From a virus (Duplodnaviria; Heunggongvirae; Uroviricota; Caudoviricetes), in IMG/VR virus record IMGVR_UViG_2877263951_000005: 41,232 nt of DNA. One strand, 5' to 3'. The notes under the pieces are model-generated. The model worked only from the letters and a program-made list of their open reading frames with translations, did not search any database and had not been told where the DNA came from. Numbering within the stretch: the first letter of the stretch is position 1; each line of letters begins with the position of its first letter. A program made the position numbers and the translations under genes. This document shows positions 3,084 to 14,743 of the stretch, piece after piece.

Positions 3084-3140
3084 ATGAAATTAGCTATCAG
3101 GCTTCAATTACCGCTGGCATTCGCATCAAAGGAGAGGAGC

Positions 3141-3497
3141 ATGGAAATAAAACCAGAAGATGAGTTAAGCAATATCGTTTTATTTCCGATAAAAGAGGAT
3201 GACCCTCGTAATCAGGTTAATTTTCTTTATAAGCCATCGGAAAGACCATATTGCCATCACGCCTCTGTACGGGTTGACGAAAAAGAGCGTCAGGTCCGCT
3301 GTAAAATCTGCGGTGCGGTTGTGGAGCCGTTTGACTGGATGCTCTCTGTGGCAAAAAGAGAAACCAGACTGGCAGATGATGTAAGGCTATTGCGCCAGGA
3401 GGAACAGGAAAGGCGGAGAAATATAGAAAAGCTGATACAGATTGAGCGTAACGCGAAAGCGCGGATACGCAGGGCGACAAAATCCAGAACTGAATAA
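3141..3497 (+). CDS. Hypothetical phage protein (zinc-ribbon-like CHH...CKIC, basic coiled C-terminus)
   Basis: Start chosen at MEIKPED because of the RBS aaaggagaggagc. The track ORF 3084-3497 extends upstream. Confidence 0.5.
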   Translation: MEIKPEDELSNIVLFPIKEDDPRNQVNFLYKPSERPYCHHASVRVDEKERQVRCKICGAVVEPFDWMLSVAKRETRLADDVRLLRQEEQERRRNIEKLIQIERNAKARIRRATKSRTE

Positions 3498-3589
3498 TTA
3501 AATTTAGCACTGTTAAAAATTTAATCCTTAACCGGAGGGATTTCTGCACCCTCAAATCATCAGGAGACCGCCCGAAAGGGCGGTAATGA

Positions 3590-3808
3590 ATGGTTACATT
3601 ATTTAGAAAAAAATATCCGCGAAAGAGTAGAACAACAGAATTCCTGTTTCTCATTCTGTTTATCGTGTTGATGACACCGATATCCCCGCAAATTTTTGTC
3701 TGGATAATCGGAAAAATAATTGAGCCAGTTATTGAATTGTATAACGACGTGGTATGGGCGTCATTCAACACACTGCACAATAAAATTAATCCGTATAAGG
3801 AAAGCTGA
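3590..3808 (+). CDS. Small putative membrane protein
   Basis: 72 aa with one hydrophobic span, FLFLILFIVLMTPISPQIFVWIIG. Its stop lies 1 nt before the HNH start codon. AT-rich. Confidence 0.35.
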   Translation: MVTLFRKKYPRKSRTTEFLFLILFIVLMTPISPQIFVWIIGKIIEPVIELYNDVVWASFNTLHNKINPYKES

Positions 3809-3809
3809 T

Positions 3810-4175
3810 ATGGCACTGACGAAAAAACAACGTGCAGAACTGCGCATGAAGTTCGGTGGTCGCTGCGCTTATTGCGGCTGCGAACTTGGCGAAAAGTGGC
3901 ATGCAGACCATGTAAAACCGGTCATTCGTTTTGATGGAAATATGCTTCACCAGGAACGTGACGATATATCCAACATGGTACCAGAATGCCACCCATGCAA
4001 TCTGCACAAGCATTGCAGTAGCCTGGAAGATTATCGACGAATTATCAGTGATGGTCGTCGTGAATTCCTTGCGTCCGGGAAAGGCAAAGCGCTGGTTCGT
4101 ATGGGATTGGTTGAAATGAAATCTGACCCGGTTGTGTTCTGGTTTGAAAAATATCAAGAAGGGGCTACGGCATGA
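3810..4175 (+). CDS. HNH endonuclease
   Basis: MALTKKQRAELRMKFGGRCAYCGCEL...HADHVKP...CHPCNLHK is a CxxC...H-N-H...CxxC/H core. The start is in frame within track ORF 3720-4175. Confidence 0.8.
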   Translation: MALTKKQRAELRMKFGGRCAYCGCELGEKWHADHVKPVIRFDGNMLHQERDDISNMVPECHPCNLHKHCSSLEDYRRIISDGRREFLASGKGKALVRMGLVEMKSDPVVFWFEKYQEGATA

Positions 4176-4837
4176 CTACTATTACCAAAGAGCGACTGCA
4201 ATGGCTGGCTAACATTTCTGGCCGCGATGATATTGACGATATAGACGGCGGTGAAATTCGTGAACTGGCGCTTATCGCTCTGGCATCACTGGAAGCAGAG
4301 CCTGTAGCGGAATGCATTGTTGAAGATGGGGGCATGTGTATTGACGGGTTCGGTGAGTATGTGGGTCACTCGCTGCCTGATGGAATGCATGAGCTTTATG
4401 CTGCCCCGCGAATGCGACAACCTGATGGATGGAAAGCCGTAGCTGTAGCGTGGAAGGTGACGTTTACTCAAGTTGACCAGGAATCTAATACGTTCACTGC
4501 TATATATTTTTACAAAGCGGAAGTTGAGCGTTGGGTACGACTGCATAAAGCATGTGATTTTCGGGCAGATATAACACCGCTTTACGCAGCGCCGGCAGTG
4601 CCGGTTGCAGTAAACGACGACATGGCTTACGCATTCCATCACGCACTGTCAGATTCATCGCTTGGCTCTGATGAAATCGAAGAAATTAAAACCGGTTTGC
4701 GTGCTGCCTTTGCCAACGTCACTATCCAACCAGAGCCGATAGTGCCGGATGAAATCGGGCCAAACGATAGTAATACGTTTGATTATGTTGATGGCTGGAA
4801 CGCCTGCCGCGCTGCCATGCTTAAGGGAGATAAATAA
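4172..4837 (+). CDS. Hypothetical phage early protein
   Basis: 221-aa ORF, translationally coupled at both ends (atga overlaps). Contains repeated LYAAP motifs. Confidence 0.55.
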   Translation: MTTITKERLQWLANISGRDDIDDIDGGEIRELALIALASLEAEPVAECIVEDGGMCIDGFGEYVGHSLPDGMHELYAAPRMRQPDGWKAVAVAWKVTFTQVDQESNTFTAIYFYKAEVERWVRLHKACDFRADITPLYAAPAVPVAVNDDMAYAFHHALSDSSLGSDEIEEIKTGLRAAFANVTIQPEPIVPDEIGPNDSNTFDYVDGWNACRAAMLKGDK

Positions 4838-5202
4838 TGATTAATCGAACCAAACTGGAGCACATTCTCGAATATGCCAGGCAGCAGAAATGTATTGGGC
4901 AACTTTGTAAAATTCCACCAGGAGATATGGTTGAAATCGTGGAAATGGCCATGCGTAAGGCTGGCAACTCTCCGGTAACTCTGGCTGGCTGGATAAGCTG
5001 TAGTGATGCAGTTCCTGCTGAATATTGCGATGTGATTCTTCTCGATGATCTCGGGAATGTATTCCCCGGTTCCTGGGATAAGGTTTTTTGCCCCACTCGT
5101 GGCGGGAATAAGATGGCTTTTGTGGACAAAGACGGCGTTGAAGTAGAGAGCTCAACTCACTGGATGCCGCTACCGGAACCACCGCAGGAGGTGAATCAAT
5201 GA
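4837..5202 (+). CDS. DUF551-family phage protein
   Basis: The C-terminal ...STHWMPLPEPPQE is the DUF551 hallmark as I remember it. Confidence 0.6.
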   Translation: MINRTKLEHILEYARQQKCIGQLCKIPPGDMVEIVEMAMRKAGNSPVTLAGWISCSDAVPAEYCDVILLDDLGNVFPGSWDKVFCPTRGGNKMAFVDKDGVEVESSTHWMPLPEPPQEVNQ

Positions 5203-5282
5203 CCTGGCCTGAGGCATTCACCACGGTAGGAATTGCGATGGCGGTGGCGCTGGTGGTGTATTCGATTTGCCGTTGGGGTTAA
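5199..5282 (+). CDS. 27-aa hydrophobic peptide
   Basis: MTWPEAFTTVGIAMAVALVVYSICRWG. It has an atga overlap with the upstream gene and is followed by a strong terminator. Below the track size cutoff. Confidence 0.35.
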   Translation: MTWPEAFTTVGIAMAVALVVYSICRWG

Positions 5283-5290
5283 CAAACAAA

Positions 5291-5318
5291 AACCCCGGAT
5301 TGATGGTCCGGGGTTTTT
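5291..5318 (+). terminator. Rho-independent terminator
   Basis: aaccccgga-ttgatgg-tccggggtt followed by a T run. Confidence 0.75.
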
Positions 5319-5656
5319 GAAGGAAACAAAACAGAAACAGCAATTGCCGTTACCTGTTGTTACCATGGCAAGTAAACGTATCTCAGGCGAGCGCATTGCG
5401 CCGTTCTGACGCAGATAAATTAGCCTGGATAGAAGGTGCTGGCAATAAAAAATAGCGTTTTCTTATCGGTATCGGTAAGATTGCTGCGGGTGCTTGAGGC
5501 TGTCTGCCTCGGGCATGCCACTGTAAGGCAGACAGAGAAAAGCCCCAGTTAACATTACGCGTCCTGCAAGACGCTTAACATTAATCTGAGGCCCAATCTA
5601 TGTCTCACAAATGTAGGTTAGCCTCTTACGTGCCGAAAGGCAAGGAGAAGCAGGCT

Positions 5657-5812
5657 ATGAAGCAGCAAAAGGCGATGTTAATCGCCCTGATCGTCATCTG
5701 TTTAACCGTCATAGTGACGGCACTGGTAACGAGGAAAGACCTCTGCGAGGTACGAATCCGAACCGGCCAGACGGAGGTCGCTGTCTTCACAGCTTACGAA
5801 CCTGAGGAGTAA
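5657..5812 (+). CDS. hokD: Hok/Gef-family type I toxin (HokD/RelF-like)
   Basis: MKQQKAMLIALIVICLTVIVTALVTRKDLCEVRIRTGQTEVAVFTAYEPEE, a 51-aa canonical Hok. Track ORF 5600-5812 is an in-frame upstream extension. Confidence 0.9.
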   Translation: MKQQKAMLIALIVICLTVIVTALVTRKDLCEVRIRTGQTEVAVFTAYEPEE

Positions 5813-5880
5813 GAGACCAGGCGGGGGAGAAATCCCTCGCCACCTCTCATGTGTCAGGCATCCTCAACGCACCCGCACTA

Positions 5881-5902
5881 AACCCGCTTTGGCGGGTTTT
5901 TT
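5881..5902 (+). terminator. hok mRNA terminator
   Basis: aacccgc-tttg-gcgggtt plus a T run. Confidence 0.75.
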
Positions 5903-6048
5903 GTTGCGTGCTGAATACGCAGGGTGAAAAATAACCATATATTTGATTATATACACAACAAAAAATAAAAGTCATTGTACTTGCACATTAAACAATCAAA
6001 TATACGGCGTGAAATAAATATTTATCAGATTAATATTTTTGTCTCTAT

Positions 6049-6300
6049 GTGGATATAACCGTTTGTACTTATAAACCTGGGGGCATCGTGGAAAAAATAA
6101 AGAAACTATTTAGTAGCAAATACGCAGTCATACGTCGTGATGACCTGTCAGTTATAGTCGAAATGGATTACTTCCCTGAAACCCCAAAATCAATAATGTA
6201 TCGTAATGGTCGAAAGGCAATTTTTTTACCGATGAGGGTAAGTGACATTATGGGAAATGATAAACTGCTGGATGAATTGCGAGTCAGAGCATCCTGTTAG
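6049..6300 (+). CDS. Hypothetical protein (AT-rich moron-like ORF)
   Basis: 83-aa ORF with a GTG start after a very AT-rich leader. Its stop codon lies inside the IS1 target duplication, so the ORF is intact. No family recognised. Confidence 0.35.
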   Translation: MDITVCTYKPGGIVEKIKKLFSSKYAVIRRDDLSVIVEMDYFPETPKSIMYRNGRKAIFLPMRVSDIMGNDKLLDELRVRASC

Positions 6301-6317
6301 TAGGTAATGACTCCAAC

Positions 6318-6821
6318 TTACTGATAGTGTTTTATGTTCAGATAATGCCCGATGACCTTGTCATGCAGCTCCACCGATTTTGAGAACGACAGTGACTTCC
6401 GTACCAGCCTTGCCAGATGTTGTCTCAGATTCAGATTATGTCGCTCAATGCGCTGAGTGTAACGCTTGCTGATAACGTGCAGCTTTCCCTTCAGGCGTGA
6501 TTCATACAGCGGCCAGCCATCCGTCATCCATACCACGACCTCAAAGGCCGACAGCAGGCTCAGAAGACGCTCCAGTGTGGCCAGAGTGCGTTCACCGAAG
6601 ACGTGCGCCACAACCGTCCTCCGTATCCTGTCATACGCGTAAAACAGCCAGCGCTGACGTGATTTAGCACCGACGTAGCCCCAATGTTCGTCCATTTCAG
6701 CGCAGACAATCACATCACTGCCCGGTTGTATGCGCGAGGTTACCGACTGCGGCCTGAGTTTTTTAAGTGACGTAAAACCGTGTTGAGGCCAACGCCCATA
6801 ATGCGTGCACTGGCGCGACAT
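6318..6821 (-). CDS. insB: IS1 InsB' frame (made as InsAB' by -1 frameshift)
   Basis: 167-aa ORF identical or near-identical in all four IS1 copies. Confidence 0.9.
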
Positions 6822-7015
6822 CCGACGCCATTCATGGCCATATCAATGATTTTCTGGTGCGTACCGGGCTGAGAGGCGGTGTAAGTGAACTGTAGTTGCC
6901 ATGTTTTACGGCAATGAGAGCAGAGATAGCGCTGATGTCCGGCAGTGCTTTTGCCGTTACGCACCACGCCTTCAGTAGCGGAGCAGGAAGGACATCTGAT
7001 GGAAATGGAAGCCAC
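6740..7015 (-). CDS. insA: IS1 InsA
   Basis: 91 aa, [40 protein letters not shown]... Confidence 0.95.
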
Positions 7016-7148
7016 GCAAGCACCTTAAAATCACCATCATACACTAAATCAGTAAGTTGGCAGCATTACCCTGTTAGTATTGGCATTAATTCTGGTATAC
7101 TACATAACGGGCTGAACACCCATTCTACTGCGCCAGCGGAGAACTACG

Positions 7149-7748
7149 ATGGCGCATATACAACTGGTCAAACAAACCTCTTCCGGATTACTTCTCCCGG
7201 CGACGCCGGAGAGTTGCGATTTTTTGCATCAAATCAAAATAGGTGAGTGGATACACGCAGACTTTAAGCGTGTGCGTAACTACGCATTCCACAAGCGTTT
7301 TTTCAAACTCCTGCAACTGGGATTTGATTACTGGACTCCGGTCGGTGGGGCGATCACGCCTCGCGAACGAAAACTGGTATCAGGCTTCGTTGATTACCTG
7401 TGCGAATCAGTAGGTCGGGAACACACTCCAGCCCTGAGTGATGCCGCAGAGCAATACCTTAATACAGTTGCGACATGCAGAACCCGGGATACGGCATTGC
7501 TAAAGTCGTTTGACGCTTTCCGCGAGTGGGTAACCATTCAGGCCGGATTTTACACCGAGCATATTTATCCTGATGGTAGTCGTGGGCGCAGGGCAAAATC
7601 TATCGCATTTGCGAACATGGACGAAACCGAGTTTCAGCAGGTTTATAAATCTGTACTGAATGTGCTGTGGAACTGGATCCTGTTCCGTAAATTTTCCTCT
7701 CCGGAGGAAGTCGAAAATGTGGCCGCGCAGTTACTGGAGTTTGCGTAA
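7149..7748 (+). CDS. Lambdoid nin-region protein (DUF1367-like)
   Basis: 199-aa ORF immediately upstream of, and coupled to, a YbcO-like gene and a Q-like gene. Family name is from memory. Confidence 0.55.
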   Translation: MAHIQLVKQTSSGLLLPATPESCDFLHQIKIGEWIHADFKRVRNYAFHKRFFKLLQLGFDYWTPVGGAITPRERKLVSGFVDYLCESVGREHTPALSDAAEQYLNTVATCRTRDTALLKSFDAFREWVTIQAGFYTEHIYPDGSRGRRAKSIAFANMDETEFQQVYKSVLNVLWNWILFRKFSSPEEVENVAAQLLEFA

Positions 7749-8038
7749 TGGTGGATTTACGTAAAGCGGCGCGGGGGCAGATGTGCACCGTCAGAATTCC
7801 TGGCTACTGCAATCACAATCCCGAAACTTCTGTGCTGGCGCATTACAGGCTGGCGGGGACGTGCGGAACAGCGACAAAACCACACGATATGCAGGCAGCG
7901 ATTGCCTGTAGCTCATGCCACGATTTAATCGACGGGCGGGTAAAAACCAGCGATTACACCAAAGAAGAATTACGCCTGATGCATGCAGAAGGTGTTTTTC
8001 GCACACAAGAAATCTGGAGAAAGGAAGGTTATTTATGA
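7748..8038 (+). CDS. YbcO-like protein (DUF1364, putative nuclease)
   Basis: MVDLRKAARGQMCTVRIPGYCNHNPETSVLAHYRL...IACSSCHDLIDGR is collinear with E. coli DLP12 YbcO (96 aa). Confidence 0.8.
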   Translation: MVDLRKAARGQMCTVRIPGYCNHNPETSVLAHYRLAGTCGTATKPHDMQAAIACSSCHDLIDGRVKTSDYTKEELRLMHAEGVFRTQEIWRKEGYL

Positions 8039-8589
8039 TTTACCCAACAAATACAGGCAAAAGCGGGGAACACCTTCGTCTCACCACGCTGGAAAGTGTC
8101 TGGATTCAGGGAAAACTGCGCATGTGGGGGCGCTGGTCGTATATTGGCGGCGGTAAGACGGGAAATATGTTTAACCAGTTGCTGGCATCCAAAAAATTGA
8201 CGAAAACAGCCGTCAATGAAGCCCTGCGCAGGATGAAAAAAGCGGGAATAGAGAAACCTGAGCTGGAAGCGTTTTTGCGAGAGATGATCAATGGCAAGCA
8301 AAAGACCTGGCTGGCGCATTGTACTGATGCAGAGGCGTTATGTATTGATAGAGTCATAAGTGAGGTGCTGGCAGAGCATCCTGGATTGATTAGTGTCCTC
8401 CGGCAACGGTATGAAGGGCGGGGGATGACTAAGCGTAAAATGGCTGAATTGCTGAATGACGCACACCCTGAGTGGTGTTTCCGGACGTGCTGCAGTCGGG
8501 TAGATGTATGGCTAAATCTTGCTGAATATATGCTCTATCTACCGATGCGTGATGCATTCTCTTCCGGGGATCTAAAAACCGTTTGTTGA
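8035..8589 (+). CDS. Putative late-gene antiterminator Q-like protein (DUF1133-type)
   Basis: 184 aa starting MIYPTNTGKSGEHL (atga overlap with the ybcO-like stop). It is the last gene before a consensus-like promoter plus terminator pair. Identification rests partly on position. Confidence 0.5.
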   Translation: MIYPTNTGKSGEHLRLTTLESVWIQGKLRMWGRWSYIGGGKTGNMFNQLLASKKLTKTAVNEALRRMKKAGIEKPELEAFLREMINGKQKTWLAHCTDAEALCIDRVISEVLAEHPGLISVLRQRYEGRGMTKRKMAELLNDAHPEWCFRTCCSRVDVWLNLAEYMLYLPMRDAFSSGDLKTVC

Positions 8590-8615
8590 CTCAATCTGTT
8601 ATCCGGGGCTATATT
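8586..8615 (+). promoter_or_regulatory. Candidate late promoter (PR'-like)
   Basis: -35 ttgact (8586-8591), 18-nt spacer, -10 tatatt (8610-8615), directly after the Q-like gene. Confidence 0.5.
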
Positions 8616-8677
8616 CCTCACGCGCCAGCAAAATCTGGCGTCGGGATTGGCGTCCCGGATGTTTACGGAGCGATATG

Positions 8678-8699
8678 AGACGCGCCCGCGTCTTTTTTC
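8678..8699 (+). terminator. tR'-like terminator downstream of the late promoter
   Basis: agacgcg-cc-cgcgtct followed by tttttt, about 65 nt after the -10 element. Confidence 0.65.
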
Positions 8700-8976
8700 A
8701 TATCGTTTGCACAGTCACATTCGCGATTTATGGCGGGCTGTGTGGGGGAGCCGAAAGGCTCGCCGGTTTCCGTACCCGGTTACGCCAACCCTGCACAGTT
8801 CGCCACCAGTTCGATTGGCGTCGTCGGTGGCGATAATTTCCAAATGTACGGAGTTATCGTTATGACCACTCAAATCTCTGTTGAAACTCTCTCCCCGATC
8901 ACCCATAACCAGTGAGGTAGCCTGAGTTTAACGGACACTCCTTCCTGAAATAGAATGGCATCAGAAGGAGCTAATA

Positions 8977-9279
8977 ATGAGCAGAAAAACCCAACGTTAC
9001 TCTAAAGAGTTCAAAGCCGAAGCTGTCAGAACGGTTCTTGAAAATCAACTTTCGATCAGTGAAGGCGCTTCCCGATTATCCCTTCCTGAAGGCACTTTAG
9101 GACAATGGGTTACCGCCGCCAGAAAAGGGCTCGGTACTCCTGGTTCCCGCACGGTGGCTGAACTGGAATCTGAAATTCTGCAACTGCGTAAGGCGTTAAA
9201 TGAAGCTCGCCTTGAGCTCGATATATTAAAAAAAGCAACAGCGTATTTTGCACAGGAGTCGCTGAAAAATACGCGTTAA
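8977..9279 (+). CDS. IS600 OrfA
   Basis: 100 aa, [20 protein letters not shown]... This copy has ...ARLELDILKK where the other copies have ...[10 protein letters not shown]. Confidence 0.9.
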   Translation: MSRKTQRYSKEFKAEAVRTVLENQLSISEGASRLSLPEGTLGQWVTAARKGLGTPGSRTVAELESEILQLRKALNEARLELDILKKATAYFAQESLKNTR

Positions 9280-9314
9280 TCGAACAATGGCGACAACAAT
9301 TTCCCATTGAAGCG

Positions 9315-10133
9315 ATGTGTCAGGTATTTGGTGTATCCAGGAGCGGTTATTACAACTGGGTACAGCATGAACCCTCAGACAGAAAACAAAGTGATGAGCG
9401 GCTAAAACTGGAGATTAAGGTGGCACATATCCGCACTCGCGAAACATATGGAACCCGGCGGCTCCAGACGGAGCTGGCAGAGAATGGCATCATCGTTGGT
9501 CGTGACCGACTGGCACGTCTTCGTAAGGAGCTGAGGCTACGCTGTAAGCAGAAACGCAAGTTCAGAGCGACTACGAACCCGAACCACAATCTGCCAGTTG
9601 CGCCAAATCTGCTGAACCAGACGTTCGCTCCTACAGCACCAAATCAGGTCTGGGTGGCGGACCTGACGTATGTTGCCACACAGGAGGGATGGTTGTACCT
9701 CGCTGGCATCAAAGATGTTTATACGTGTGAAATTGTCGGCTACGCCATGGGAGAGCGCATGACAAAAGAGCTGACAGGTAAAGCCCTGTTTATGGCGCTC
9801 AGGAGCCAGCGCCCACCTGCCGGGCTAATCCACCACTCTGATCGAGGTTCACAGTACTGCGCATACGATTACCGGGTCATACAGGAGCAGTCTGGTCTGA
9901 AAACATCAATGTCGCGTAAAGGTAACTGTTACGACAACGCTCCGATGGAAAGCTTCTGGGGAACGCTGAAAAATGAGAGCCTGAGCCACTATCGTTTTAA
10001 TAACCGGGATGAAGCCATCTCAGTAATACGGGAATACATTGAGATTTTCTACAATCGTCAGCGTCGTCACTCTCGTCTGGGGAATATCTCCCCGGCAGCC
10101 TTCAGGGAAAAATATCATCAGATGGCTGCTTAA
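9315..10133 (+). CDS. IS600 OrfB (DDE transposase frame; OrfAB via -1 frameshift at A7G)
   Basis: 272-aa ORF with HHSDRGSQY and NCYDNAPMESFW motifs. Confidence 0.9.
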   Translation: MCQVFGVSRSGYYNWVQHEPSDRKQSDERLKLEIKVAHIRTRETYGTRRLQTELAENGIIVGRDRLARLRKELRLRCKQKRKFRATTNPNHNLPVAPNLLNQTFAPTAPNQVWVADLTYVATQEGWLYLAGIKDVYTCEIVGYAMGERMTKELTGKALFMALRSQRPPAGLIHHSDRGSQYCAYDYRVIQEQSGLKTSMSRKGNCYDNAPMESFWGTLKNESLSHYRFNNRDEAISVIREYIEIFYNRQRRHSRLGNISPAAFREKYHQMAA

Positions 10134-10782
10134 AAAAAGAACAAATGGTAGTGTCCGCTATTGCCAGTACACCTCACAGATTCCTGTTATTACCACCGAA
10201 CTTTTGGCGCAGCTTTACGGCACTGAGCCGGTGCGTATTCGCCAGAATCATCATGAGAACAAAGTACGCTTCGTTGAAGGGAAACACTTTTTCAAAGTTG
10301 TTGGTAATGACCTTAAAGAATTGCGGGTCGCTTTAAACTACTCACAAAATCCAGTTTCACCCAAAGCCCGCTCCCTCATCCTCTGGACAGAACGAGGCGC
10401 AGCACGCCACGGCAAAATGCTCGAAACCGATCAGGCGTGGGATGTGTTCGAAAAACTGGAAGACTGCTATTTCAGTCAAAGGGATCCGTCAACGCCAGTT
10501 TCATGCCAGAAAAGTTACGACACGCGAGTTCTCTGTTATCAGAGAGGCGGTGTCACTGTTTCCACAATTCAGTTACGGGATGATGATATTGTTATTTCCC
10601 TTGAGTCATGGCTGGAACTGGCGAGAGCCAATGGTTGGTTTGTTGTTCGCAGAGATAAACTGGTGGAAAGGTTGATGCAGCTTTAAAAAAGTTCTTGCAT
10701 TTTTGCACATAAACTGCTTCAATTCCGGTAAGCTTCGCAAAGCTGTATCGCGAGGCGAATAGCAGACATGGACACTTGAAAG

Positions 10783-10806
10783 AACCCGCTTTATGCGGGT
10801 TTTTTT
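10783..10806 (+). terminator. Rho-independent terminator
   Basis: aacccgc-tttat-gcgggtt plus a T run. Confidence 0.75.
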
Positions 10807-10894
10807 GTGCCTGAAAAATGGCACAGGGCGTTAAACGCGCTGGTGGTCAGATGAGTTTGCAGATGTGATGACATATGGTTATTATTCTGCCTCC

Positions 10895-10971
10895 GGCCCT
10901 TTAGCTCAGTTGGTCAGAGCGAGCGACTCATAATCGCCAGGTCGCTGGTTCAAGTCCAGCAAGGGCCACCA
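10895..10971 (+). tRNA. tRNA with CAU anticodon (ileX/ileZ-like tRNA-Ile2, or Met)
   Basis: 77 nt, ggcccttt...ctcataa...ttcaagtccagcaagggccacca. Very similar to E. coli ileX as I recall it. Confidence 0.85.
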
Positions 10972-10972
10972 A

Positions 10973-11049
10973 CCACCACTAGCTCATCCGGATAGAGCAT
11001 CAACCTTCTAAGTTGACGGTGCGAGGTTCGAGTCCTCGGTGGTGGGCCA
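10973..11049 (+). tRNA. tRNA-Arg (UCU)
   Basis: 77 nt with anticodon loop cttctaa, T-arm cgagg-ttcgagt-cctcg, and acceptor ccaccac/gtggtgg (C1-G72). Confidence 0.8.
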
Positions 11050-11051
11050 GC

Positions 11052-11127
<76 letters not shown>

Positions 11128-11130
11128 TAT

Positions 11131-11205
<75 letters not shown>

Positions 11206-11319
11206 TGACCTTTCTTAAAGTACTCCAACCTACTGAATCCTAAGGGATACGGCTTTAAGCCTCCTTGCAGAGTTACTTACTGTAACCCACTGTGTAACCC
11301 TCTCAGGGCATACAGACAT

Positions 11320-12924
11320 ATGATTCAGCTATCCAGTAGTCACAAACTTCCAGCAGTCTACTATCTCTACCAGCGTAACGGCGTCTACTACTTCCGTCTT
11401 AGGGTCAGACAATCAAACAATGATAGAATGACCTCAATATCATTACGGACCAAGGATAGACGCACCGCTATGGCTTACTCAAGGCACATAAAGGCAGCAC
11501 TCAAGGCAATACACGCAGACAGACCCAACGCTACCTACGAGGAAATGAGGGAACACCTTAAGGACATCGCTGAGTGTGAACTGTCTATGGGCCGTTCAGA
11601 TCTCTTTGAGCCTGACATGAGGGATATCTACCGGGACCAATACGGAGAACTTGGTGAGAGCCTTACCGATGCTCTGGCTAGTGAGCCGCTAAGCATTGAC
11701 CAGCATCGTTACATCAATGAGGCCCTGAAGGTGCTAAAAGCCTGTATGAGGCGTATCGAAGCGGGAGACAGTCAGCCTCTGATAGATTACGTCGATCTTT
11801 TTAATGATATTGATAGGCAAGATAACCAAGCAGACTCTGTGTCCCTATCTGTTAATGCTCCAGAAGTAAAACCAGAAGTTACGCCTAGCATTACCATAGC
11901 GAGCCTCTTTGAGCAATACGAAGCGGAGAACTATCAGAACTGGAAGCCTGCAACCTTAAGGGAAAACAAGGCGTCACACGCTGCGTTAATCGAAATATTC
12001 GACCATCTGGGTCTCAATGCAGACGCTAACAGGGCTGACATGCTTAGGGTCCGTGATGTGCTCCAGCAGTTACCTAGGAACCGTAAGCAGCGCTTCAAGG
12101 ATGTCCCACTTGCTGACCTGTTGAGCCGTGAAGATAAGACAGATTGTCTGGATGTCGTTACCATCAACAACAAGTATCTTATTAAGATGGCTGCTGTCTT
12201 TAGGTGGGCTGTGCGCAATGACTTGATTAAAAAGAACATGACTGAGGGTCTGGAGCTTAAAGTCCCTCAGCGTAAAGCCTCAGGGGCCCGTAACGCCTTC
12301 TCTACGGAGCAGGTGGGGCAACTACTGGTCGCAGCTAAGGCATACTCTCAGAAGACCTCTGGTAAGCCGTATCATTATTATGTTACCGCCTTGGCTGCTA
12401 TCACTGGGGCGAGACTCAATGAAATAGCCCAACTACAGGTCAAAGACGTCAGGACCACTGAGGCGGGAACCGTTTATATTCATATCAATGAAGACGATAG
12501 TAGTCTACCCGGTAAGAGCATCAAGAACGCTCATAGTGACCGCTGTGTGCCTCTGGTCGATGGGGCCTATGGTTTTATATTGGCTGACTTTATGGCGCTT
12601 GTAGAGACCCGTAGAGGCGCTGACGGTGATGACGCTATGGTGTTCGATGGTCTGCGTCTCATGAAGAACGGTTACGGTGAGCAGGTGAGTAAATGGTTTA
12701 ATCGGACGTTGTTGCCTAAAGTCCTCGTAGACCGTAGCGGCTTAGCGTTTCACTCGTTTAGACATACAGTTGCGACCCAGTTAAAACAACATGGGGTCGA
12801 GTTGGTGTATGCACAGGCGATCATGGGGCATAGTTCAGGGTCTATTACGTACGACCGTTATGCTAAAGAGGTCGAGGTTGATAGGCTGGTCAATGTGATG
12901 GCTGATGTTTATAAGGAGACCTAG
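11320..12924 (+). CDS. Tyrosine recombinase/integrase (unusually long, 534 aa)
   Basis: Catalytic signature ...ITGARLNEI..., HSFRHTVAT, GHSSGSITYDRY. It lies 114 bp downstream of tRNA-Gly. Nucleotide style is rich in cttaag/cctaagg words. Confidence 0.85.
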   Translation: MIQLSSSHKLPAVYYLYQRNGVYYFRLRVRQSNNDRMTSISLRTKDRRTAMAYSRHIKAALKAIHADRPNATYEEMREHLKDIAECELSMGRSDLFEPDMRDIYRDQYGELGESLTDALASEPLSIDQHRYINEALKVLKACMRRIEAGDSQPLIDYVDLFNDIDRQDNQADSVSLSVNAPEVKPEVTPSITIASLFEQYEAENYQNWKPATLRENKASHAALIEIFDHLGLNADANRADMLRVRDVLQQLPRNRKQRFKDVPLADLLSREDKTDCLDVVTINNKYLIKMAAVFRWAVRNDLIKKNMTEGLELKVPQRKASGARNAFSTEQVGQLLVAAKAYSQKTSGKPYHYYVTALAAITGARLNEIAQLQVKDVRTTEAGTVYIHINEDDSSLPGKSIKNAHSDRCVPLVDGAYGFILADFMALVETRRGADGDDAMVFDGLRLMKNGYGEQVSKWFNRTLLPKVLVDRSGLAFHSFRHTVATQLKQHGVELVYAQAIMGHSSGSITYDRYAKEVEVDRLVNVMADVYKET

Positions 12925-13011
12925 AGGAGACCATAGTCTAGGATGACACTTACTACAGACCTGTGTGGTCATGTTTTTGACTCATAGTTTTCTCTACTTG
13001 TCAAGGATAAT

Positions 13012-13034
13012 TAATACGACTCACTATAGGGAGA
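13012..13034 (+). promoter_or_regulatory. Phage T7 class III consensus promoter (23/23), +1 = G13029
   Basis: taatacgactcactatagggaga is an exact match to the T7 RNAP consensus from -17 to +6. The flanks do not resemble the common vector contexts I know. Confidence 0.85.
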
Positions 13035-13231
13035 AGGGACACAAAAAGTTTTCTCTTCTAGGACAACTAACCGTAACTTATCGCATCCTTTCAGGGGCGG
13101 GATGACCAATTACAGACACCAAGCGTTCTACTTAAAGTGAATGCTTCCTGTGTGCTCTGGGTCAGTCGATAAGTGAATAGCAATAAGACACAATCATCTT
13201 AATTATGGTCTCTAGTCCCTACAGGGGCTTA

Positions 13232-13371
13232 ACTTAAAGTTAACTTAAAGACACAATTAAAGATTAACTTATAGTATTACTTAAAGTTAACTTAAAGACA
13301 CAATTAGAGATTAACTTTAAGTATTAAATAAAAGATTTAATTAAAGACCAATTAAAGATTAACTCTAAGGG
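13232..13371 (+). repeat. AT-rich tandem repeat, 47-bp unit x ~2.9, built of cttaaag/attaaag words
   Basis: 13232-13278 and 13279-13325 are 44/47 identical. A degenerate third copy runs to ~13371. Confidence 0.9.
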
Positions 13372-13421
13372 AATACCTTAAGGGGTGATGATATTTATAA
13401 TAATCAATCACCAAACCTATA

Positions 13422-13492
13422 GGTCTTCTCTAGGGTCTCTCTATAGGTCTTCTCTATGGTCTCTCTATAGGTCTCTCTAGGGTCTCCTCTAG
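13422..13492 (+). repeat. Iteron array: 6 tandem 11-12-nt units ggtct(t)ctcta(t/g)
   Basis: ggtcttctcta gggtctctctata ggtcttctctat ggtctctctata ggtctctctag ggtctcctctag. Confidence 0.9.
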
Positions 13493-13512
13493 GCATTACC
13501 CCCAGAAGCTAA

Positions 13513-13552
13513 CTCTATGGCCCTCTATGGTCCTCTATGGTCCTCTATGGCC
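13513..13552 (+). repeat. 4 tandem 10-nt units ctctatgg(c/t)c
   Basis: ctctatggcc ctctatggtc ctctatggtc ctctatggcc. Confidence 0.9.
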
Positions 13553-13600
13553 CTGTACGTCATTCTTTAGGATGCCCTGTAGTTTCGTATAGCCTGATGC

Positions 13601-13646
13601 CTAGAGAGACCCTAGAGAGACCCTAGAGTGGCTCCTAGAGAGACCC
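13601..13646 (+). repeat. Inverted iteron array: ctagagagacc x3 plus one degenerate copy
   Basis: ctagagagacc is the exact reverse complement of the ggtctctctag unit at 13470-13480. A further inverted copy, ctagaggagacc, overlaps the integrase stop codon at 12921-12932. Confidence 0.9.
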
Positions 13647-13807
13647 TCCCAGTAGCTCCGCACAGCTACATCGTCATCATCATAGTATTCAATCTCAAAG
13701 TCATTCTGTTTGCATCCTGTTGTCCTGCTGGTCTCCCTTCGCTTGGGGACTTTGAGTAGGTCAGTGGGGGTGCGACTTCAGGGTGCAAACAAAAAGGAAA
13801 TCAAGCG

Positions 13808-13990
13808 ATGTCTCAACAACCACAACAACCACAACAACCACAACAACCACAACAACCACAACAAGAAATCAGCATCATTAACCTCGACCAGCTTGTGTCC
13901 ATGACCTCAGTTGAAATTGCTGAGCTGACAGGCAAGGAGCACCGAAATGTCCTTCGTGATATTCGTAAGATGCTCGAAGAACTTAACGCG
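13808..13990 (+). pseudogene. Rha-family (Phage_pRha-like) regulatory protein, N-terminal 61 codons only, cut by IS1
   Basis: MSQ(QPQ)n...MTSVEIAELTGKEHRNVLRDIRKMLEELNA, then an IS1 end at 13991. RBS aaggaaa is upstream. Confidence 0.65.
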
Positions 13991-14045
13991 GGTAATGCTG
14001 CCAACTTACTGATTTAGTGTATGATGGTGATTTTAAGGTGCTTGC

Positions 14046-14321
14046 GTGGCTTCCATTTCCATCAGATGTCCTTCCTGCTCCGCTACTGAAGGCGTGGTGC
14101 GTAACGGCAAAAGCACTGCCGGACATCAGCGCTATCTCTGCTCTCATTGCCGTAAAACATGGCAACTACAGTTCACTTACACCGCCTCTCAGCCCGGTAC
14201 GCACCAGAAAATCATTGATATGGCCATGAATGGCGTCGGATGTCGCGCCAGCGCACGCATTATGGGCGTTGGCCTCAACACGGTTTTACGTCACTTAAAA
14301 AACTCAGGCCGCAGTCGGTAA
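14046..14321 (+). CDS. insA: IS1 InsA
   Basis: Identical 91-aa InsA. Confidence 0.95.
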
Positions 14322-14743
14322 CCTCGCGCATACAACCGGGCAGTGATGTGATTGTCTGCGCTGAAATGGACGAACATTGGGGCTACGTCGGTGCTAAATC
14401 ACGTCAGCGCTGGCTGTTTTACGCGTATGACAGGATACGGAGGACGGTTGTGGCGCACGTCTTCGGTGAACGCACTCTGGCCACACTGGAGCGTCTTCTG
14501 AGCCTGCTGTCGGCCTTTGAGGTCGTGGTATGGATGACGGATGGCTGGCCGCTGTATGAATCACGCCTGAAGGGAAAGCTGCACGTTATCAGCAAGCGTT
14601 ACACTCAGCGCATTGAGCGACATAATCTGAATCTGAGACAACATCTGGCAAGGCTGGTACGGAAGTCACTGTCGTTCTCAAAATCGGTGGAGCTGCATGA
14701 CAAGGTCATCGGGCATTATCTGAACATAAAACACTATCAGTAA
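14240..14743 (+). CDS. insB: IS1 InsB' frame
   Basis: 167 aa. This copy has MSRQRTHYG where the others have MSRQCTHYG. Confidence 0.9.

Follow-up and report, generated by a model that had tools for sequence, protein, structure and literature searches.

Small genomic islands that combine an integrase gene with promoters of the T7 type have been described in enteric bacteria. The 2006 account reportedly covered a dozen islands of 4–13 kb in enteropathogens, each said to carry two or three tandem T7-like promoters and no polymerase gene, with a tyrosine integrase gene upstream and terminal repeats of 17–24 nt; the islands were reportedly proposed to depend on T7-like phages. The class has thus been in print since that year (Chen and Schneider, Nucleic Acids Res 34:1133-1147) and is already known. 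The present analysis concerns a long tyrosine integrase gene in a stretch of 41,232 nucleotides deposited as a virus of the Caudoviricetes (IMG/VR record IMGVR_UViG_2877263951_000005); this whole stretch is called the window below. The explanation that accounts best for the gene as a whole, and one that we consider highly probable, is that it encodes the integrase of a small T7-like promoter island of this published class, and that this enzyme is an arm-binding-type (heterobivalent) tyrosine integrase. The corresponding features of the window are the following:

11131–11205, + strand: tRNA-Gly(UCC) gene, the last gene of a prophage tRNA cluster (ARAGORN).
11183–11205, + strand: attL core TTCGATTCCCGCTGCCCGCTCCA, the 3' end of tRNA-Gly; the island begins at 11206.
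11320–12924, + strand: tyrosine integrase gene (int), 534 aa, with an ATG start and a TAG stop at 12922–12924.
13012–13034, + strand: perfect T7 class III promoter TAATACGACTCACTATAGGGAGA, 87 nt past the int stop, with 0 copies expected by chance.

As re-found here, islands of this class consist of a tyrosine integrase gene upstream of tandem promoters, a few small phage-like genes and end repeats, all within a few kb and with no RNA polymerase gene. The window has a promoter after the integrase gene and on the same strand, and neither a phage RNA polymerase gene nor any virion gene; its copy differs from the class in having a single promoter and no attR. Together with its flanks, this promoter is identical to T7 phi13 over 27 nt and to phi6.5, phi10 and phiOR over 26 nt. 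Between one and four T7-group promoters were located just downstream of int in 22 out of 24 related loci, always on the int strand. In the 24 loci, the 2.6 kb that follow int contained 49 copies of the core CACTATAGG with its upstream context on the int strand; the other 863 kb of the scan contained one, which makes the region after int approximately 720-fold enriched. At least one promoter of this type was present in 20 loci, two Pectobacterium loci carried variant promoters, and one contig was too short. The specificity region of the promoters varies between islands, some of which carry two or three kinds, and the kinds detected include the T7 type, AATTAGGGCACACTATAGGGAGA, the T3-like AATTAACCCACACTATAGGGAGA and others. 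We take AATTAGGGCACACTATAGGGAGA to be the promoter type of Klebsiella phage K11. A further variant, AACTATCACTATAGGGAGA, was present in 22 viral contigs, 20 of them T7-like genomes of 39–41 kb with T7-like capsid, portal and polymerase genes and the remaining 2 islands. When ten T7 proteins (RNA polymerase, DNA polymerase, primase-helicase, gp2.5, portal, scaffold, capsid, tail fibre and both terminase subunits) were used as tblastn queries, no homologue was detected in the window or in any enterobacterial island.

As the gene lies within prophage-derived DNA, it could be read as the integrase of the surrounding lambdoid prophage. Positions 3111–11205 of the window align collinearly to a lambdoid prophage of E. 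coli VL40 (L058), in its late-regulatory region, with gaps at 6302–7070 and 8818–10177, where IS copies interrupt the window prophage region. In VL40 the prophage is uninterrupted and its four-tRNA cluster is followed directly by holin and lysozyme genes, and the homology stops exactly at 11205, the CCA end of tRNA-Gly. Judged by this alignment, the VL40 prophage is an empty site for the island. Moreover, the sequence TGACCTTTCTTAAAG... located directly 3' of the window tRNA-Gly is the same as that found 3' of the chromosomal glyU in E. coli strains with close relatives of the integrase. Because the VL40 homology ends at 11205 and the start of the glyU islands matches, the integrase belongs to a separate element inserted in the prophage tRNA-Gly. 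Its assignment to the lambdoid prophage has practically no credence: the gene is flanked by the late-gene tRNA cluster on one side and by the expected position of the lysis genes on the other, the VL40 copy of the same prophage has no such gene there, and the homologues have their own att sites at glyU. We rejected this candidate on the basis of the VL40 empty site.

Another tRNA gene of this region, at 10895–10971, was called tRNA-Met(CAT) by ARAGORN and is annotated by RefSeq as tRNA-Ile in the 99.7% identical VL40 region. It is presumably the lysidine-type tRNA-Ile that is common in the tRNA clusters of lambdoid prophages.

The right part of the island is interrupted in the window, as shown by the following features:

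13808–13990, + strand: IS1-truncated gene for a Rha-family regulator, of which the 5' part with a (QQP)n expansion is left (homology to related locus L001).
From 13991: IS1 inverted repeat GGTAATGCTGCCAACTTACTGAT, which interrupts the island.
14046–14743: IS1 InsA and InsB ORFs.

Residues 1–41 of the L001 Rha-family protein align to 13868–13990 with 88% identity. The (QQP)n run at the start of the cut Rha-like ORF is encoded by (CAACAACCA)x5 at 13816–13862, an expansion that has no counterpart in the relatives. A second copy of the att core was not found anywhere in the window, so the paired end repeats of the class are reduced here to attL; attR is missing owing to the IS1 cut at 13991. What the window retains is a truncated and immobile remnant of an island, which can no longer be excised although its integrase gene is intact. 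A protein 99% identical to the integrase is recorded as a Shigella flexneri integrase, and the island entered a tRNA-Gly gene carried by a lambdoid prophage remnant of this species; IS1 later removed everything to the right of 13990, attR included. Farther along the window, the iron/manganese transporter genes sitABCD are located at 18.4–22.4 kb among many IS copies, and regions matching aerobactin-bearing (iuc/iutA) ColV-type plasmids, again interleaved with many IS copies, extend beyond 24000. At least in its paragraph on the Shigella/E. coli sit island, a review cites Chen and Schneider 2006.

Relatives of the integrase (516–563 aa, 65–99% identity) are spread across the Enterobacterales. 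The best 120 matches, at least 82% identical and 487–552 aa long, came from Shigella, Escherichia, Yersinia, Citrobacter, Klebsiella, Raoultella, Serratia, Lonsdalea and Cedecea, and a further scan with a single genome for each species extended the list to Pectobacterium, Rouxiella, Morganella, Enterobacter, Buttiauxella, Shimwellia, Kluyvera, Proteus and Edaphovirga with identities of 65–87%. Among complete E. coli genomes, 388 out of 5426 (~7%) contained an integrase match, in all cases on the chromosome. At 10 loci, direct repeats of 17–27 nt corresponding to the tRNA-Gly 3' end bound elements of 4.3–7.6 kb. All the island genes are on one strand, and their order is constant across genera: int, sometimes followed by a DUF4145 gene that overlaps the int stop; 0.6–1.3 kb of non-coding DNA; a KilA-N/Rha/Ant-like protein; a protein of 64–76 aa; a DUF6971 protein; and a protein of 326–402 aa that belongs to no family. 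The smallest intact island is that of E. coli FT130 (L003; NZ_CP040090 917,600–921,900): in its 4.3 kb, int and the non-coding region are accompanied only by the genes of two proteins, one of the KilA-N type and the other a small membrane protein.

Scans of the island proteins against Pfam, PHROGs and PADLOC returned only KilA-N, Rha/Ant, DUF6971, DUF4145/PD-T7-4 and a weak PD-T4-2_B match for the KilA-N protein of L003; none of the marker genes of satellites (primase-replicase, capsid-size or packaging redirection, small terminase) was detected in them. The protein of 326–402 aa is common to the enterobacterial islands and to islands of Pseudomonas, with 27–55% identity (L007 12629–13837; L015 12781–13776; L031 13877–14878). 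It had no match in Pfam, PHROGs, PADLOC or the PDB, and no profile similarity to the T7 capsid protein gp10.

Outside these islands, the nearest full-length relatives are encoded by T7-like phages. The first-pass annotation, made from the sequence alone, had suggested a phylogeny with the integrases of cyanobacterial and pelagibacterial T7-like temperate phages and of PICI/P4-type satellites, and had named as the finding that would speak against its reading close full-length homologues common in ordinary genomic islands with no T7 link. The link to T7 was borne out. Sixteen records of the phage collection matched the integrase, five of them at full length (97–98% coverage, 30–32% identity, E 2e-46 to 8e-63), and all five were Pseudomonas phages of the Studiervirinae, the T7 subfamily; homologues are indeed common in islands, but as nearly all the islands examined carry T7-group promoters downstream of int, the finding named as adverse was not obtained. 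A relation to the other groups was not supported: no cyanophage, pelagiphage or P4-type integrase in the phage collection matched at E≤1e-5.

In the Pseudomonas phages the integrase gene is placed at one end of a ~40 kb genome. In metagenomic viral contigs of 39–42 kb it is located either beside the gp19 terminase gene (62–66% identical to T7) or at that contig end which also carries the RNA polymerase gene, which is located a few kb from the integrase gene and is 56–58% identical to that of T7. Homology of the window integrase with these phage and viral-contig enzymes is full-length and collinear, with 30–37% identity. The Studiervirinae integrases compared (vB_PsyP_3MF5; phTUNSm/v, genus Warsawvirus; vB_PaeM-G11) share with it the N-terminal motif YxYRRxGVYYLRLR...SLRT, the helical bundle, the SLSV linker and the catalytic residues. 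They differ from it in their size, 480–502 aa, and in their location in complete ~40 kb T7-like genomes beside a terminal repeat or terminase gene, whereas the enterobacterial integrases have two extra insertions of ~23 and ~17 aa and are found in islands without any T7 gene. A search with the N-terminal 320 residues retrieved 437 cluster representatives at E≤1e-3, 52 of them at E≤1e-10, among 1.84 billion, and many of the closer full-length matches had 480–500 aa, the size of the Pseudomonas type. By these alignments, the integrase shares its lineage with those of the Studiervirinae. The window gene itself is not encoded within a T7-like phage genome, since the window has no T7 genes and its prophage is lambdoid.

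Pseudomonas chromosomes also carry islands of ~6 kb, located beside nadB (L031 10001–15907), with a homologous 477-aa integrase and with Bro-N and Rha genes. A pair of genes for proteins of 133 aa and 333 aa in L031 is like the enterobacterial one. The Pseudomonas islands contain two copies of AAAACCCTCACTATGGC, which is similar to promoters annotated in phage vB_PsyP_3MF5.

In complete T7-like genomes the homologous integrases occupy the extreme ends, beside the terminal repeat. This raises the alternative that the integrase and promoter of the window are the decayed end of a once complete temperate T7-like prophage, and the window copy is visibly decayed, being cut by IS1 and devoid of attR. 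Nevertheless, attL and attR bound compact elements of 4.3–7.6 kb with the same gene order at no fewer than ten loci in different genera; none of the ten T7 core genes is present in the compact islands, and random decay is unlikely to repeat itself in this way. Furthermore, no enterobacterial T7-like phage with such an integrase was found in the phage collection. We therefore regard decay from a complete prophage as quite improbable.

The protein itself agreed in most respects with its first-pass description. The integrase ORF is intact, and its coordinates, its length of 534 aa and the motifs proposed for it were all present as given, with YYLYQRNGVYYFRLRV at residues 14–29, TGARLNEI at 362–369, HSFRHTVAT at 478–486 and GHSSGSITYDRY at 503–514. 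The catalytic residues, which had been placed in the last ~200 aa, are R365, H478, R481, H504 and Y514, all within the final 170 aa, and were unchanged in 39 out of 39 sequences of an alignment of relatives with 30–98% identity, in which the conserved tyrosine was Y514 rather than Y511. Phage_integrase (PF00589) matched residues 329–516 in Pfam with an E value of 1.2e-17, and Pfam, the alignment and Foldseek concur in a C-terminal R...HxxR...H/W...Y catalytic domain that makes the protein a tyrosine recombinase. The length that had been called unusual is so in comparison with typical integrases of 350–420 aa, but it is standard within its own family. The extended N-terminal half is real, in that the extension is conserved across the relatives. 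The assertion that the first ~200 aa resemble no family held only in part: residues 15–63 match Pfam DUF6538 (E 1.4e-5, 25.1 bits versus a cut-off of 27), a domain present in 17 of the 39 aligned relatives, whereas residues 65–190 have no match in Pfam, PDB sequences, PDB folds or BFVD folds. A phmmer search of residues 1–190 against PDB sequences likewise gave no match.

Charge is unevenly distributed in this half of the protein. Residues 1–64 are strongly basic (13 K+R versus 2 D+E) and residues 65–165 are acidic (24 D+E versus 11 K+R), the latter being the region that had been predicted to be acidic and probably helical. An AlphaFold2 model built with the 39-sequence alignment (pLDDT 73 at full length, 69 for residues 1–190) showed three beta strands at residues 12–44 followed by a helix at 47–63, which make up the beta-beta-beta-alpha module of DUF6538 (12–63); a helical bundle at 73–160, whose pLDDT of 80–92 makes it the best-predicted portion of the N-terminal half; a disordered linker at 166–189; a helical core-binding domain at 193–300; and the catalytic domain at 324–531. 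From its sequence alignment, the acidic helical bundle at 73–160 is conserved throughout the lineage. The two C-terminal domains superposed in Foldseek on Tn1549 Int (3e-5), Cre and XerH over ~360–390 columns. The assignment of the core-binding domain is based on the helices at 193–300, on these two-domain structural alignments and on the central domain Phage_int_M (PF22022), which was found in 13 of the 39 aligned relatives.

The order of domains is that of lambda Int and of Tn916/Tn1549 Int, in which a small N-terminal DNA-binding module precedes core-binding and catalytic domains; for the N-terminal module of the window integrase such a role is predicted. The likeness to the lambda type extends to arm-type repeats distinct from the core on both arms and to Tn1549 Int being the best structural match of the C-terminal part. 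Unlike the arm-binding families of lambda and Tn916, the window integrase has DUF6538 as its N-terminal module, and unlike the lambda type it has an extra acidic helical bundle of ~90 aa and a disordered linker of ~25 aa before the core-binding domain. The candidate arm sites retained in the window are the following:

11281–11298, + strand: candidate arm-type integrase sites of the P' arm, TGTAACCCACTGTGTAAC, with two TGTAAC 12 nt apart (pattern search).

The pattern TG[TC][AG]AC-N6-TG[TC][AG]AC was scanned over 921 kb and gave 37 matches, all on the + strand and all within the two att-proximal arms. In 22 of 24 loci a pair precedes the start of int by 35–120 nt (39 nt in the window), and a second pair was located just inside attR in 15 loci; the window retains only the pair proximal to int. 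Arm-type repeats distinct from the core are thus found on both attP arms, as in heterobivalent integrases, and the tandem TGTAAC pairs are likely to be the arm sites predicted from this distribution. No convincing sigma-70 promoter for int was recognised between the tRNA gene and the start codon.

In the most likely course of the reaction, the basic DUF6538 module would bind the tandem TGTAAC arm sites on both sides of attP, a role suggested by the predicted topology, the charge and the arm repeats. Given the chemistry of the family and the att repeats of the relatives, the core-binding and catalytic domains would exchange strands within the 17–27 nt core of the tRNA-Gly 3' end through Y514.

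Downstream of int, the non-coding DNA contains short repeats that offer an alternative target for the integrase:

12920–12932, + strand: repeat CCTAGAGGAGACC over the int TAG stop, the exact reverse complement of GGTCTCCTCTAGG at ~13481–13493; it forms an inverted-repeat pair with 13477–13493.
13417–13647: iteron clusters, comprising CTATAGGTCTTCTCTAGGGTCTCT x2–3 at 13417–13493, CTCTATGGYC x4 at 13513–13562 and inverted CCTAGAGAGACCCT x3 at 13600–13647.

The repeat over the stop codon, noticed in the first-pass annotation, is present, and it has the same orientation as the three copies of CCTAGAGAGACCCT at 13600–13647. In E. coli FT130, ~13 tandem copies of GATGACCATAGGC occupy 21813–21975 of L003 directly after the int stop, and the window has a single related GACCATAG at 12929–12936. 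It had been suggested that the integrase or a partner protein may read these iterons (CCTAGAGRGACC-type repeats), which would turn them into arm sites or a regulatory operator. The overlap of one copy with the stop codon, the inverted clusters of the same motif 500–700 nt downstream and the 13-nt unit repeated ~13 times directly after the stop in L003 would fit such a function. However, both the repeat unit and the copy number differ between islands whose integrases are ~85% identical, as the window and L003 illustrate, and it is the TGTAAC pair, of which the iteron region has no copy, that is conserved along with the integrase and restricted to the arms. Recognition of the iterons by the integrase is consequently improbable, and this suggestion was not upheld.

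Two other features of the non-coding region follow the promoter:

13225–13400, + strand: AT-rich region (68–80% AT) with CTTAAAG repeats (T7 genome scan).
13707–13791, + strand: conserved hairpin, between the T7-type promoter and the first promoter-driven gene (covariation).

When the AT-rich block was compared with both strands of the whole T7 genome, the best local alignments were obtained with T7 5851–6150 (score 39) and 301–600 (score 38), the genome median being 16 and the 95th percentile 23; a shuffle control was run. We take the first of these intervals to be the primary origin of T7 (phi1.1A/B and its AT-rich region) and the second to be the secondary origin at phiOL. The layout of an origin of the T7 type is a promoter followed by an AT-rich block. 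By this sequence comparison, the AT-rich block of the island resembles the AT-rich parts of both T7 replication origins. The iteron block gave scores of 29–30 versus a 95th percentile of 22, partly with the left-end repeats of T7; this similarity was judged too weak and was not used. The hairpin (85 nt) is 77–93% identical in 16 islands from eight genera, and 8 of its 27 pairs show compensatory changes. Its covariation of 0.243 compares with 0.155+-0.011 for shuffles, none of which reached it (0/500), and with 0.02–0.06 for slid controls. Rfam gave no match for the hairpin nor anywhere in 12900–14000, and our guess, by analogy with the hairpins of T7 transcripts, would be a site of RNase III-type processing.

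From these features, the island is probably a satellite of a T7-group phage, a defence element against the phage, or both. It would most likely be silent until a T7-group phage provides an RNA polymerase, which would then transcribe the island and would probably prime its replication as well, with the promoter and the AT-rich block acting as an origin of the T7 type; the island would then be packaged or otherwise mobilised by the phage. Tentatively, and with somewhat less than an even chance, we propose that the islands are true satellites of virulent T7-group phages, whose RNA polymerase fires the island promoters. The T7 replisome would replicate the promoter and AT-rich origin, concatemers of six to nine islands would be packaged in T7 heads, and the integrase, inherited from temperate Studiervirinae, would reinsert the island at tRNA-Gly. 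The acidic helical domain would be a control or multimerisation module specific to the lineage, and those islands with two or three promoter specificities could make use of several helpers.

A precedent for such an economy of genes is provided by PICMI, satellites of virulent Vibrio phages, which are very small and have few genes and no capsid-remodelling genes, as is the case for the T7 islands (PMC10803314). PICMI are packaged as concatemers of helper-genome length (Nat Commun 2024, PMC10803314), and packaging of this kind would also suit islands of 4–7 kb in a 40 kb T7 head. PICMI differ in that they integrate next to fis, have three core proteins of their own and have been proven experimentally (PMC10803314); they have no promoters for a phage RNA polymerase, going by the absence of T7-like or Autographiviridae terms from that paper. 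In the literature we found neither an experimental follow-up of the dependence of the islands on a T7 helper nor an experimentally proven satellite of T7.

Several observations weigh against the island being mobilised in this way. No sequence evidence of excision, replication or packaging was seen. No Xis-like excisionase was matched among the island proteins in Pfam or PHROGs, the concatemer-junction pause motif of T7, ATCTGTT, is not conserved in the islands, and beyond the promoter and the AT-rich block no stand-out homology to T7 was detected in the other non-coding DNA, the T7 ends and terminal repeat remaining unmatched. Two island-size contigs from gut metagenomes start in glyU and have no circular overlap. 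One related locus, from Morganella (L013), has no recognisable promoter. As for the arm-binding role of DUF6538, the fold searches with the N-terminal model (residues 1–190) gave no specific match in the PDB or BFVD, and the pLDDT values are moderate (69–73). Small contigs with close homologues turned out to be chromosomal fragments that start in or before glyU without terminal overlap, and the viral-contig matches with identical or 73–75% identical integrases, together with two more distant ones, come from isolate genomes. Neither circular nor particle-associated forms of the island were present in the sequence data searched.

In many islands (L007 9624–10256, L014 9616–10275, L028 10741–11373) the int stop is overlapped by a DUF4145 gene, which PADLOC identifies as PD-T7-4 (E 8e-99). 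Neither the window copy nor the minimal island L003 has it. PD-T7-4 was found by selection against T7, and it "often overlap[s] an integrase gene" (Vassallo et al., PMC9519451); the passages of that paper that were examined do not describe the island. PD-T7-4 now bears the name RAZR and is an RNase that ring-forming phage proteins, including a portal, activate (PMC13017515); the main text of the latter paper mentions neither "integrase" nor "satellite".

This experimentally shown anti-T7 defence, overlapping the int stop in many islands, speaks for the main rival on function, namely that the islands are integrase-borne defence islands that T7 does not mobilise. The phage promoters would only be sensors of infection that switch on toxic or abortive-infection genes (KilA-N/Rha, DUF6971, the protein of 326–402 aa), and the integrase would be of use just for sporadic horizontal transfer by other means. 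In agreement with such a role, signatures of virion, terminase or replicase proteins are lacking from the promoter-driven genes, and neither a T7 packaging signal nor excised forms were detected. However, PD-T7-4 is located upstream of the promoters, and hence is not driven by them, and it is absent from many islands. Moreover, a region whose best matches are two T7 origins lies downstream of the promoters, the extensive arrays of short repeats, in the style of T7 genome ends, would have no obvious role in a pure sensor, and the presence of integrases more than 82% identical in many genera points to efficient recent transfer. A role limited to infection sensing is thus possible, though rather unlikely, and defence and mobilisation by the phage do not exclude each other.

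No virulent phage has been studied more thoroughly than T7, which is also a mainstay of phage therapy and biotechnology. The idea that these islands are tied to it is 20 years old and has apparently not been taken up in the current literature on satellites, and the value of the present analysis is in its sharper, testable parts rather than in a discovery. The integrase has practical value as a compact, defined recombinase that targets tRNA-Gly, with clear candidate arm and core sites. The islands are present in ~7% of complete E. coli genomes and in many genomes of Klebsiella, Citrobacter, Serratia, Yersinia, Pectobacterium and Proteus. If they respond to the RNA polymerases of T7-group phages, they would constitute a natural cassette for phage-triggered expression and replication, would spread defence genes such as PD-T7-4/RAZR and would alter the outcome of infections by therapeutic T7-like phages. 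If they are indeed satellites, virulent T7-group phages would be a class of helpers for which a satellite had not been shown experimentally.

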